Origin: Escherichia coli
GTDB taxonomy: Bacteria > Pseudomonadota > Gammaproteobacteria > Enterobacterales > Enterobacteriaceae
Length of the DNA stretch: 64,000 bases
Reading direction: 5' to 3' (one strand)
NCBI RefSeq assembly: GCF_003018235.1
Contig: NZ_CP027437.1
Part shown: positions 3,001 to 6,000 of the stretch, one piece after another
How positions within the stretch are numbered: the first letter of the stretch is position 1
Layout: each line of letters opens with the position of its first letter
Program-made: the position numbers

Positions 3001-6000
3001 CCGCAGACAAAATCCTGCCAGCGTGAGGGAAACAACACGGTACATTTCTCACTTTTCACCGCTTTGCCAAACTGGAACTGAAAGGCGCTCATTTTCTCTT
3101 TCAGCGTCGCGAAACGCGTCTGACCGTCTTTCATTGGATAAGCACCGCCAAAGATAAAATAACCGTCTTTGCTGATACTCCATGAGTAACAGTCAGTTAT
3201 CGCATTATCAAAGATGCAGGAGTAGAACGGCACCGGATGTTTCTCTGCGAACCACTGCTGGATAGCGACATATTTACGAATTTGATGGTTCGGGTAGAGA
3301 TGTCGCCGCACCATCGAGTTGGCACCATCGGCACCGACCAGATAGCGGGCGGTAATATGCTGCTCCCAACCGTCTGCACGAAAAATGACATGCCATTTAT
3401 CATCCTCACGCCAGATTTTTCGACACAAGCTGTCGTGATAAACCTCAACGCTGGCGGGGATCAGCGATTTCATCCACAAGTCGAAAGCATGGCGATTAAT
3501 ATTGATATAGCTTCGCTGGTAGTTACGCGTGAGCGATGCGGCGACGTCGACGGTTTTGACGCTGAAAATCTGCGGGTTGGCGATCACATCGACAGGAAGC
3601 GTCAGTCCATCGCGAATAAAAGATCGCTGCGCGTCCGGTGCCAGCAGACCGCCGCAGGGTTTGCTGAAACCTTCAGTACCACACTGGTGCTTTTTATCCA
3701 GCGCGATCACCTGCATTTTGCCTGCTAACTTTCGTGCCAACGCCGACCCTGCCGGGCCGAGGCCAATAATCGCCACGTCGAAATGTTCCATCTTTTCACT
3801 CACATTCATCACGATGGCGAAAGACTATTGTCTGAAAGTGAAGTCCTTGTGAAGTATGATGGCGGGAACCGTTTTGTATCAGGACCGCGCCATGAAACAG
3901 ATAACCTTTGCTCCCCGTAATCACCTGCTCACCAATACCAATACCTGGACGCCCGACAGCCAGTGGCTGGTATTTGACGTTCGTCCTTCAGGGGCGTCGT
4001 TTACCGGCGAGACCATTGAGCGTGTGAATATCCATACCGGCGAGGTCGAGGTTATCTATCGCGCGTCACAGGGCGCACACGTCGGCGTGGTGACCGTTCA
4101 TCCGAAGTCAGAGAAGTATGTCTTCATCCACGGCCCGGAAAATCCTGATGAAACATGGCATTACGACTTCCATCATCGGCGCGGAGTGATTGTTGAAGGC
4201 AGCAAGATGAGTAACCTTGATGCGATGGATATTACCGCGCCGTATACGCCAGGAGCGCTGCGCGGCGGCAGCCATGTGCATGTCTTTAGCCCGAACGGTG
4301 AAAGGGTGGGCTTTACCTATAACGACCATGTAATGCATCAACTCTGCCCGGCGCTGGATTTGCGAAACGTCGGTGTTGCTGCACCGTTTGGCCCGGTCAA
4401 CGTACAAAAGCAGCATCCGCGTGAATACAGCGGCAGCCACTGGTGCGTGCTGGTAAGTAAAACCACGCCCACGCCGCAGCCTGGCAGTGATGAAATCAAT
4501 CGTGCTTATGAAGAAGGATGGGTAGGAAATCACGCGCTGGCGTTTATTGGCGACACACTTTCGCCAAAGGGCGAGAAAGTGCCGGAGCTGTTTATCGTTG
4601 AGTTACCGCAAGATGAAGCTGGCTGGAAAGCGGCAGGTGATGCGCCGTTAAGTGGAATGGAAACAACCCTGCCCGCGCCACCGCGTGGCGTCGTGCAGCG
4701 ACGTTTAACCTTTACACACCATCGGGCTTATCCGGGGTTAGTCAACGTTCCGCGCCACTGGGTGCGCTGTAATCCGCAGGGTACGCAAATCGCGTTTTTA
4801 ATGCGTGATGATAACGGCATTGTGCAACTGTGGCTTATCTCGCCACAGGGCGGCGAGCCGCGCCAGTTAACCCATAACAAAACGGATATTCAGTCTGCAT
4901 TTAACTGGCATCCGTCAGGAGAATGGTTGGGCTTTGTGCTGGATAATCGAATTGCTTGCGCCCATGCGCAAAGCGGCGAGGTTGAGTATTTAACCGAAAA
5001 CCACGCCAATCCACCTTCTGCGGACGCCGTGGTCTTCTCGCCGGATGGTCAGTGGCTGGCGTGGATGGAAGGTGGCCAGCTGTGGATCACCGAAACTGAT
5101 CGCTAAATCAGTTATCAGGCATTCTGGCCGGTGGAATAACCGCATTGGTGGCTTGCGCGTTGGCTTCGCTTTTTTCAACGCGTGAGCGCACCGAGCTGTC
5201 TTTGCGGAACACGTCCCACGGCAGTAAAAGCGTGTCCATCACAGCGGTAAACGGCATATCGAGAATCGCCAGCGACTTAGTGCCCCAGTTGGTTTCATCG
5301 TCGCCAATCATGGTGGCGCTGGCGCGGGTGCCGGGATACGTTCCTTCTTTCCCCCCGGTATGGGACATCACGCTGGAGCATCCTCCAAGTAATGTCATTC
5401 CGCTGCATATCATGAACGCTAACAACACATTTCTTATCATAATAAATTCATCTGTTGATCGTGGGTGTTGGCCTGATGAGTTATAGCGATCCCTTGCTGA
5501 AAATAACATCATCATTACGTCGCACTGTGGCGGCTATCGCACTTTAACGTTTCGTGCTGCCCCCTCAGTCTATGCAATAGACCATAAACTGCAAAAAAAA
5601 GTCCGCTGATAAGGCTTGAAAAGTTCATTTCCAGACCCATTTTTACATCGTAGCCGATGAGGACGCGCCTGATGGGTGTTCTGGCTACCTGACCTGTCCA
5701 TTGTGGAAGGTCTTACATTCTCGCTGATTTCAGGAGCTATTGATTATGCGTAACTTTGATTTATCCCCGCTTTACCGTTCTGCTATTGGATTTGACCGTT
5801 TGTTTAACCACTTAGAAAACAACCAGAGCCAGAGTAATGGCGGCTACCCTCCGTATAACGTTGAACTGGTAGACGAAAACCATTACCGCATTGCTATCGC
5901 TGTGGCTGGTTTTGCTGAGAGCGAACTGGAAATTACCGCCCAGGATAATCTGCTGGTGGTGAAAGGTGCTCACGCCGACGAACAAAAAGAGCGCACCTAT

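Follow-up and report, generated by a model that had tools for sequence, protein, structure and literature searches.

A sigma-32 promoter and a ROSE-type RNA thermometer upstream of ibpA in Escherichia coli

Results

The leader of ibpA matches an Rfam thermometer family over its full length

The leader of the Escherichia coli ibpA mRNA lies downstream of a sigma-32 promoter and carries all of the sequence and structure hallmarks of a ROSE-type RNA thermometer, which supports its assignment to that class. A thermometer of this type had been proposed here in an initial annotation of the sequence. The leader matches the Rfam family ROSE_2 from the first to the last position of the model, with a score 35 bits above the gathering threshold, and a ROSE feature is annotated at the same place in RefSeq (NC_017626.1). 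As is characteristic of ROSE elements, it belongs to the 5′ UTR of a gene for a small heat-shock protein (alpha-crystallin/Hsp20), here ibpA, which lies directly downstream. Both the promoter and the ROSE-like thermometer are already known, having been described between 1992 and 2009, included in Rfam, and annotated automatically in RefSeq. Coordinates below refer to the window, the 64-kb stretch of E. coli DNA that was analysed.

5680-5752, plus strand: match to Rfam ROSE_2 (RF01832) over the full model (positions 1-73 of 73), with 100.4 bits (gathering score 65) and E = 3.3e-23

Window positions 5400-6900 correspond to the yidQ/ibpA/ibpB/yidE locus of the E. coli chromosome with 99.9% identity; of 5426 complete genomes, 5419 contain this locus. 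The stretch that begins 160 nt before the ibpA ATG and ends 337 nt inside the gene is identical at every base to K-12 MG1655, so the promoter and leader are those of K-12. With the identity of the locus established in this way, the region is almost certainly the native regulatory part of the ibpAB small heat-shock operon of E. coli.

5746-6159, plus strand: ibpA coding sequence, 137 aa (NCBIfam NF008013 IbpA equivalog, 295.5 bits, cutoff 212; RefSeq annotation)
6271-6699, plus strand: ibpB coding sequence, 142 aa (NCBIfam NF008618 IbpB equivalog, 288.4 bits, cutoff 207; RefSeq annotation)
6715-6742, plus strand: intrinsic terminator of the ibpAB operon, GCCCCGCCA-TTC-TGGTGGGGC followed by T7 (terminator scan)

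The terminator, which had been claimed at 6713-6743, was confirmed at 6715-6742. It has the form of a Rho-independent terminator, with a stem at 6715-6735 of nine pairs (seven of them G-C) closing a 3-nt loop and followed by T7, and it begins 16 nt past the ibpB stop codon. Several sub-threshold Rfam matches at 6609-6743 (anti-hemB, Hrs1, PrrF, GcvB, and ncS54) reflect only resemblance to the terminator hairpin and fall far below their gathering scores. Two minus-strand open reading frames of 41-43 aa, at 5515-5640 and 5570-5701, lack RefSeq annotation and were not counted as genes.

A hairpin with a bulged G pairs the SD sequence of ibpA

The 3′-most hairpin of the leader contains the SD sequence of ibpA, for which the start codon is at 5746.

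5720-5736, plus strand: leader hairpin III (SL3), CUC-G-CUG AUUU CAG-GAG, with the anti-SD UCGCU at 5721-5725, bulged G5723, and the SD AGGAG at 5732-5736 (Rfam ROSE_2 alignment)

In this hairpin UCGCU pairs with AGGAG, the anti-SD pairing of ROSE elements, and G5723 forms the bulged G of such elements, a single-nucleotide bulge between the CUC/GAG and CUG/CAG pairs. Deleting G5723 in silico shifts the hairpin at 30 °C from -5.6 to -9.5 kcal/mol, approximately doubling its stability. This fits the published observation that thermosensing is lost when the critical G is deleted (PMC2896394).

In an alignment of 57 species, 99.7% of the cells in hairpin III are paired. The hairpin is nearly invariant within the Enterobacterales, where the only changes are G-U wobbles, so that support there comes from conservation rather than compensation; covariation is seen only in a wider proteobacterial set. 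That wider set of ibpA leaders (116-118) was chosen by coding sequence only. Of 118 leaders, 116 have U(U/C)GCU 13-45 nt upstream of the ATG, compared with 8 of 118 for a control region, and a G-bulged hairpin that pairs the SD recurs in 107 of 116, compared with 1.9 in shuffled sequences.

Two stable hairpins precede the SD-occluding hairpin

Two further hairpins occupy the 5′ part of the leader.

5650-5688, plus strand: leader hairpin I (SL1), Vienna MFE -21.0 kcal/mol at 30 °C and -16.6 kcal/mol at 42 °C
5691-5712, plus strand: leader hairpin II (SL2), GACCU-G-UCCA/UGGAAGGUC with bulged G5696, MFE -10.5 kcal/mol at 30 °C and -7.9 kcal/mol at 42 °C

Hairpin III is the weakest of the three, at -5.0 kcal/mol at 30 °C and -3.4 kcal/mol at 42 °C, giving a stability order at 30 °C of -21.0, -10.5, and -5.0 kcal/mol for hairpins I, II, and III. 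ROSE elements have two to four hairpins, stable at the 5′ end and labile at the 3′ end, and the ibpA leader follows this arrangement with three. In the 57-species alignment, the upper stem of hairpin I has 92% of cells paired, compensatory changes in six of nine pairs, and an invariant apex, GCC-N4-GGG. Hairpin II, which belongs to the Rfam ROSE_2 consensus, has 94% of cells paired and covarying basal pairs (AU 19 and GC 19; GC 29 and AU 22). Both hairpins also covary among the ibpA leaders chosen by coding sequence. Overall, 89.3% of cells in the three-hairpin structure are paired, compared with 32-51% when the partners are slid, and there are 140 double-change cells, compared with 43 ± 8.5 in shuffles. 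These comparisons establish evolutionary support for all three hairpins.

The considerable stability of hairpin I, at or beside the presumed 5′ end of the transcript, invites the explanation that the hairpins are incidental or merely stabilise the mRNA, with a 5′-terminal stem-loop acting against RNase E and the promoter as the sole heat-shock control. A protective role for a 5′ hairpin was discussed by Krajewski et al. (PMC3669281), and the modest z-score of the leader described below fits this explanation as well. It leaves unexplained, however, why UYGCU/bulged-G pairing with the SD recurs across 107 of 116 independent ibpA leaders where about two are expected by chance, why the leader matches ROSE_2 with 100 bits, and why deletion of the G (PMC2896394) and strengthening of SL3 (bioRxiv 10.1101/2020.04.20.050740) have phenotypes. 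We consider it highly improbable. More improbable still, to the point of being negligible, is control of ibpA by translation of a short upstream open reading frame. An 11-codon frame does exist within hairpin I, running from an ATG at 5658 to a TGA at 5693, but it has no upstream SD, starts 6-9 nt from the 5′ end with its start codon buried in the -21 kcal/mol hairpin, and has neither its ATG nor its frame conserved in the 57-species alignment. A ROSE-type thermometer remains the preferred reading of the leader.

The promoter and the start of the transcript

The promoter upstream of the leader consists of two elements.

5615-5621, plus strand: -35 element of the sigma-32 promoter, CTTGAAA (direct reading)
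5636-5644, plus strand: -10 element of the sigma-32 promoter, (a)CCCATTTTT, with CCCATTTTT at these positions and the preceding a at 5635; 14 nt past the -35 element

The initial annotation had read CTTGAAA upstream of ibpA as a heat-shock promoter, a reading upheld by its fit to the sigma-32 consensus and its conservation in 57 species. The composite fits NNCTTGAA-N13-18-CNCCATAT, the consensus quoted in PMC3669281, with CTTGAA in the -35 element, a 14-nt spacer within the 13-18 nt range, and a -10 element resembling CNCCATAT or CCCCATNT. The E. coli dnaK, groE, and htpG promoters have in common with ibpA the CTTGAA -35 element, the C-rich CCCCATNT-like -10 element, and the 13-18-nt spacer (consensus per PMC3669281); the ibpA -10 element, aCCCATTT, has one or two mismatches to the consensus, which is ordinary variation. 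Among 57 Enterobacterales ibpA upstream regions, which were chosen by the leader alone and not by the promoter, the -35/-10 composite is nearly invariant, with TTGA of the -35 element unchanged throughout and its C, A, and A each conserved in at least 90%. A search of both strands of the 64-kb window for CTTGAAA-N12-16-CCCATNT gave a single match, and 100 dinucleotide shuffles gave none. A scan of 5300-7000 found no sigma-70-like promoter, and a sigma-70 promoter was rejected on that basis. Dependence on sigma-32 is known from the literature: ibpAB is under RpoH control (PMC8526717, PMC10410725), and the RpoH-inducible ibpA promoter serves as an RpoH-responsive sensor (PMC8526717).

The -10 element ends at a distance from the ATG that leaves room for a transcript leader of about 93-96 nt, in agreement with the earlier estimate of ~95 nt. 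A review gives the length as 96 nt (PMC6096418), and the critical G has been numbered G71 (PMC2896394); if G71 is the bulged G5723, the leader would be 93 nt. From these two sources, in which the published numbering is ambiguous by 3 nt, we infer a transcription start at 5650-5653. Hairpin I would then probably begin at the 5′ end of the transcript or at most 3 nt from it. The supplement of a genome-wide transcription start site paper has no entry for ibpA.

Thermodynamic folding recovers the hairpin and not a temperature switch

Folding of 5650-5750 at 30 and 42 °C, suggested in the initial annotation as a check, recovered the SD-occluding hairpin with bulged G5723 and did not demonstrate switching. 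The MFE structure of 5650-5750 is the hairpin at 5720-5736 from 30 to 50 °C, and the entire SD is predicted to be unpaired with a probability of ~5%, flat from 25 to 50 °C (116-nt context). At 37 °C, the Vienna MFE structure of 5650-5751 is a different fold of almost equal energy, in which the SD lies in a loop, and its competing helix is unconserved, with only 59% of cells paired across species. The z-score of the whole leader is only -1.8, which agrees with the report that melting rates calculated with Vienna fail to separate known thermometers from ordinary mRNAs (PMC2896394). A temperature series from 15 to 55 °C (MFE and partition function) was rejected as a decisive test because it found the hairpin while SD openness stayed flat. 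Nearest-neighbour folding by itself therefore gives no temperature switch, and the evidence for melting and thermo-induction comes from published work on K-12, which has the same sequence and for which PMC3669281, citing Waldminghaus 2009, quotes ~4-fold induction by the ibpA leader from 25 to 42 °C. As a methodological warning, folding at 30 versus 42 °C reveals the hairpin and not the switching, and the assignment is carried by the comparative and covariance-model evidence.

Discussion

Relationship to known ROSE elements

Membership in ROSE_2, the enterobacterial ibpA ROSE-like thermometer (Waldminghaus et al. 2005, 2009), is established by the match described above, and the element in the window shows no differences from the family: the architecture of hairpins II and III, UCGCU, and the bulged G are all shared. 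The ROSE_2 model spans only hairpins II and III and the start codon, so hairpin I (5650-5688) is outside it, yet is part of the published three-stem-loop structure.

The founding member of the class, ROSE1 (RF00435) of Bradyrhizobium japonicum hspA, shares with the ibpA leader its position in a small heat-shock 5′ UTR, the 3′-proximal imperfect pairing of U(U/C)GCU with the SD, and a critical G that is bulged, G83 in this case (PMC3669281). The number of hairpins is four in ROSE1, and its promoter in rhizobia is of the sigma-70 type, not sigma-32. No match to RF00435 was listed in the Rfam search at E ≤ 1, a search in which overlap with the ROSE_2 match could hide one if the families are in the same clan. 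The short Pseudomonas ibpA ROSE elements, ROSE_3 (RF02523), share the gene, the UYGCU/SD hairpin, and a sigma-32-type promoter (PMC3669281), but have two hairpins, with a shorter sensor hairpin, rather than three. The ROSE_3 match to the window is weak and sub-threshold (5697-5751, 20.8 bits against a gathering score of 43).

Recognition of the leader by IbpA

The leader has been described as three stem-loops of which SL3 is thermo-responsive, with IbpA repressing its own synthesis through this 5′ UTR (bioRxiv 10.1101/2020.04.20.050740, PMC10410725, PMC10474464). One could therefore regard the leader chiefly as a binding platform for IbpA that senses aggregation and autoregulates, with its hairpins kept for protein recognition and thermal melting a minor effect. 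Endogenous IbpA no longer represses once any one of SL1-SL3 is weakened (bioRxiv 10.1101/2020.04.20.050740), IbpA binds the 5′ UTR, and repression has been rebuilt in the PURE system (PMC10474464, PMC10410725). The flat SD openness in the predictions points the same way, as does conservation of sequence beyond what pairing needs, in the apex GCC-N4-GGG of hairpin I and in CCUGUCC/GGAAGG of hairpin II. IbpA binding is, however, an addition to the thermometer and not a replacement for it. The isolated leader alone gives the ~4-fold thermo-induction in reporter fusions (PMC3669281), and the Pseudomonas ROSE element with the same UYGCU and G bulge is a working thermometer, its hairpin II alone being sufficient in vivo and for ribosome binding in vitro (PMC3669281). 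A leader that is primarily an IbpA platform is thus very unlikely, and we retain the ROSE-type thermometer with IbpA autoregulation, as known from the literature, superimposed on it.

The ibpB leader contains a similar hairpin, outside the interval of the initial annotation.

6245-6262, plus strand: ROSE-like SD-occluding hairpin in the ibpB leader, CUC-G-CUUC UUA GAAG-GAG, with bulged G6248 (Vienna MFE of 6160-6285 at 30-42 °C)

The Rfam search gave no match in the ibpB leader at E ≤ 1. A thermometer in the ibpB 5′ UTR is mentioned, citing Gaubig 2011, in bioRxiv 10.1101/2020.04.20.050740, where the ibpB leader is likewise repressed by IbpA. The thermometer of the ibpB leader (Gaubig et al. 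2011) shares with that of ibpA the SD hairpin with UCGCU and a bulged G, whereas the hairpins upstream of it are unlike those of ibpA in both sequence and structure. Vienna predicts two G-bulged helices in the ibpB leader, at 6195-6215 and 6245-6262. In the ibpA leader, hairpin II has a single G bulge in its 5′ arm like the sensor hairpin, and this feature, with covarying arms, is found in 86 of 117 alpha- and gammaproteobacterial ibpA leaders. It is conceivable, though unlikely, that what IbpA oligomers recognise for autoregulation is the recurring G-bulged helix and not structure in general, which would explain the conservation of sequence in excess of pairing needs. If true, only this functional assignment would be new, because the bulge in hairpin II is already encoded in the Rfam ROSE_2 consensus.

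Proposed mechanism and implications

In the mechanism that almost certainly applies here, ibpAB is regulated in transcription and in translation, and these two levels are coupled. RNA polymerase with sigma-32 (RpoH) binds CTTGAAA-N14-CCCATTTTT and probably starts at about 5650-5653, producing a bicistronic ibpA-ibpB mRNA that ends at the terminator at 6715-6742. In the 93-96-nt leader, hairpins I and II are stable and the 3′ hairpin III is weak. At low temperature, pairing of UCGCU with AGGAG across the bulged G keeps the 30S subunit off the SD, and on heat shock, as known from the literature, the weak hairpin III opens like a zipper and allows ibpA to be translated. As a third layer, also drawn from the literature, IbpA oligomers on the same structured leader repress translation until protein aggregates titrate them.

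As a discovery, the ibpA element contributes nothing. Its value is as a positive control for the scan, in which raw sequence alone led to correct identification of the promoter, leader, thermometer, and terminator of a small heat-shock operon.

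Conserved identity of the ibpAB locus

The region upstream of ibpA is the E. coli ibpA sigma-32 promoter followed by its ROSE_2 RNA thermometer, a textbook case with an existing Rfam family and RefSeq annotation. In RefSeq, 5400-6900 carries yidQ, ibpA, ibpB and yidE, with a 'ROSE' sequence feature immediately before ibpA. Of 5426 complete E. coli genomes, 5419 match this stretch, the best at 99.9% identity. Three E. coli genomes (NZ_CP018206.1, NZ_CP116931.1 and NZ_CM192145.1) have an IS200C insertion (IS200/IS605-family tnpA) in the ibpB-yidE region that splits the match in two and is absent from the window. 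Because no base differs between the window and K-12 MG1655 over the 160 nt preceding the ibpA ATG and the first 337 nt of the gene, published work on the promoter and leader of K-12 ibpA transfers to it.

Genes and promoter elements
Flanking the interval, minus strand: yidQ, divergent
5615-5621, plus strand: -35 element CTTGAAA, read directly from the sequence
5636-5644, plus strand: -10 element CCCATTTTT, read directly, after a 14-nt spacer from the -35 element
5746-6159, plus strand: ibpA (NCBIfam IbpA equivalog model, 295.5 bits, above cutoff)
6271-6699, plus strand: ibpB (NCBIfam IbpB equivalog model, 288.4 bits, above cutoff)

The sigma-32 promoter

The initial annotation had recognized a heat-shock promoter in the CTTGAAA upstream of ibpA, and its fit to consensus, uniqueness in the window and conservation in 57 species bear this out. 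The promoter agrees with the sigma-32 consensus NNCTTGAA-N13-18-CNCCATAT (as quoted in PMC3669281), and CTTGAAA-N12-16-CCCATNT occurs once on the two strands of the 64-kb window and in none of 100 dinucleotide-preserving shuffles. For comparison, ibpA loci were gathered from GTDB species genomes by a degenerate protein pattern over the first 11 codons alone, and those whose leader, not promoter, resembled that of the window by nhmmer were kept, giving an alignment of 57 distinct Enterobacterales sequences. In this alignment, all sequences share the TTGA of the -35 element, conservation is 90% or higher at the adjoining C, A and A and across most of CCCATTTT, and the spacer between the two elements varies freely. 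A search of 5300-7000 for a sigma-70-like promoter found none, and sigma-32 dependence of ibpA transcription is published (PMC8526717, PMC10410725). Some 15 nt before the -35 element there is a run of eight A residues (5593-5600), and many of the 57 species have 'AAAAGTC' at the corresponding position; the run could be a UP-element-like A-tract serving the heat-shock promoter.

Three hairpins in the ibpA leader

Folding of 5650-5750 gave three hairpins throughout 30 to 50 °C.

Features of the ibpA leader, with folding energies at 30 °C / 42 °C
5650-5688, plus strand: hairpin I, apex GCC-N4-GGG; -21.0 / -16.6 kcal/mol
5691-5712, plus strand: hairpin II, bulged G5696; -10.5 / -7.9 kcal/mol
5720-5736, plus strand: hairpin III, CUC-G-CUG AUUU CAG-GAG; -5.0 / -3.4 kcal/mol
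5732-5736, plus strand: Shine-Dalgarno (SD) sequence AGGAG
5746, plus strand: ibpA ATG

In hairpin III, the SD pairs with UCGCU (5721-5725), interrupted by the single bulged G5723. A search of 5000-7200 against Rfam 15 in E-value mode matched the full ROSE_2 model (RF01832) at 5680-5752 on the plus strand with 100.4 bits (gathering score 65, E = 3.3e-23), and hairpins II and III of the window, bulges included, correspond to those of the ROSE_2 consensus structure. In contrast, ROSE_3, the short Pseudomonas type, matched weakly (20.8 bits, gathering score 43). The SD-occluding hairpin with its bulged G and the ROSE_2 match support the ROSE-type thermometer that had been considered probable in this leader. 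The calculated energies show the stable-stable-labile order described for the E. coli thermometer, which has 'three stem loops', the first two of which are thought to stabilise the thermo-responsive third (bioRxiv 10.1101/2020.04.20.050740). In-silico deletion of G5723 made hairpin III more stable at 30 °C (-9.5 instead of -5.6 kcal/mol), a predicted effect consistent with the published finding that deletion of the critical G abolishes thermosensing (PMC2896394).

With the reported leader length of 96 nt (PMC6096418), transcription would start on G5650, where hairpin I begins; the 'G71' numbering gives G5653 instead, provided that G71 corresponds to the bulged G. A genome-wide TSS supplement lists no ibpA entry. 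An 11-codon ATG-to-TGA frame inside hairpin I (5658-5693) lacks an SD and has a start codon that is unconserved in the other aligned species, and is almost certainly untranslated.

Comparative evidence for the structure

In the Enterobacterales alignment, 89.3% of cells form standard pairs for the three-hairpin structure, compared with 32-51% when the 3' partners are shifted by 1-3 columns. Two-sided changes occupy 140 cells, against 43 +/- 8.5 in shuffles, and for four of five measures the observed value was reached by 0 of 500 shuffles. Compensatory changes occur in six of the nine pairs of the hairpin I upper stem, and at the base of hairpin II, A-U/G-C is exchanged for G-C/A-U. Within the order, hairpin III shows 99.7% pairing and almost no sequence variation, its sole changes being C-G to U-G and G-C to G-U.

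A wider set of leaders from alpha-, beta- and gamma-proteobacteria was picked by coding sequence only. Of these 118 leaders, 116 have the anti-SD motif U(U/C)GCU at 13-45 nt upstream of the ATG, against 8 of 118 for an equal-length control region. In 107 of 116 leaders, the local minimum-free-energy hairpin contains one bulged G with stacked pairs on either side; shuffling the 3' part gave a mean of 1.9 and a maximum of 4. The arms of hairpin III truly covary in this set (for example, CUC/GAG and AUAUU/GGAUAU).

All 57 Enterobacterales leaders share the GCC-N4-GGG at the apex of hairpin I (5667-5678), above a freely covarying stem, and this sequence is conserved beyond the needs of pairing. 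In hairpin II, G5696 forms a lone bulge in the 5' arm, with the geometry of the sensor hairpin. This bulge is encoded in the ROSE_2 consensus, and a penultimate-hairpin G bulge occurs in 86 of 117 alpha- and gamma-proteobacterial ibpA leaders, with covarying arms (CCUGUCC/GGAAGG, CUUGAUC/GAUAAG and CCCGAUC/GAUGGG).

Predicted melting of the leader

The initial annotation had proposed comparing folds at 30 and 42 °C; a stable SD-occluding structure is predicted, but a switch between these temperatures is not. When 116 nt are folded, the chance of finding the five SD bases all unpaired remains at 4-5% from 25 to 50 °C. The mean SD pairing probability drops only from 0.91 at 25 °C to 0.80 at 42 °C, and the whole-leader z-score is -1.8. 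At 37 °C, Vienna favours by 0.1 kcal/mol a near-isoenergetic alternative in which the anti-SD CGC (5722-5724) pairs with GCG (5748-5750) of ibpA codon 2 (AUG-CGU). The variable part of this alternative helix is just 59% paired in the Enterobacterales alignment, and its 100%-paired part is uninformative, as it includes codon 2, which is fixed by the locus search pattern. The flat predicted melting of the three-hairpin leader matches the finding that Vienna-based melting fails to separate known thermometers from ordinary mRNAs (PMC2896394), and ROSE sensors also depend on non-canonical pairs, which nearest-neighbour models ignore (PMC3669281). Because folding at 30 and 42 °C shows no switch, the temperature response rests on published experiments with the identical leader sequence, for which PMC3669281, citing Waldminghaus et al. 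2009, gives 14 Miller units at 25 °C and a 4-fold increase at 42 °C.

The ibpA-ibpB spacer and terminator

Folding of the spacer (6160-6270) gave four hairpins, the last of which occludes the ibpB SD in the manner of a ROSE element.

Features of the spacer and operon end
6195-6215, plus strand: G-bulged helix AUGCUC-G-CC/GGGAGCAU, 3' arm SD-like
6245-6262, plus strand: last spacer hairpin CUC-G-CUUC/GAAGGAG, bulged G6248, UCGCU at 6246-6250
6715-6735, plus strand: terminator stem, followed by T7

The terminator that the initial annotation had placed at the operon end (6713-6743) is present. A GC-rich hairpin without a U-run (6167-6185, GGCCGCC...GCGGCCU) lies 8 nt past the stop codon of ibpA; it could stabilise the 3' end of a monocistronic ibpA transcript or mark where this is processed. 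RNase E processing of the ibpAB mRNA has been reported. The Rfam ROSE models gave no match to the spacer at E<=1, and the literature describes an ibpB thermometer (Gaubig 2011, cited in bioRxiv 10.1101/2020.04.20.050740), which the initial annotation had not mentioned.

Implications for IbpA autoregulation

Sigma-32 holoenzyme would start transcription a few nucleotides past the -10 element, and the bicistronic ibpA-ibpB transcript ends at the T7-tailed stem. At low temperature, hairpin III would hide the SD, and on heat shock it would melt, allowing 30S subunits to bind. The structured ibpA and ibpB leaders are also bound by IbpA oligomers, which keep translation repressed until IbpA is titrated by aggregates (bioRxiv 10.1101/2020.04.20.050740; PMC10410725; PMC10474464). 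We speculate that the sequence conservation of hairpins I and II, together with the repeated G bulge of hairpin II, may be a recognition feature for this autoregulation by IbpA.
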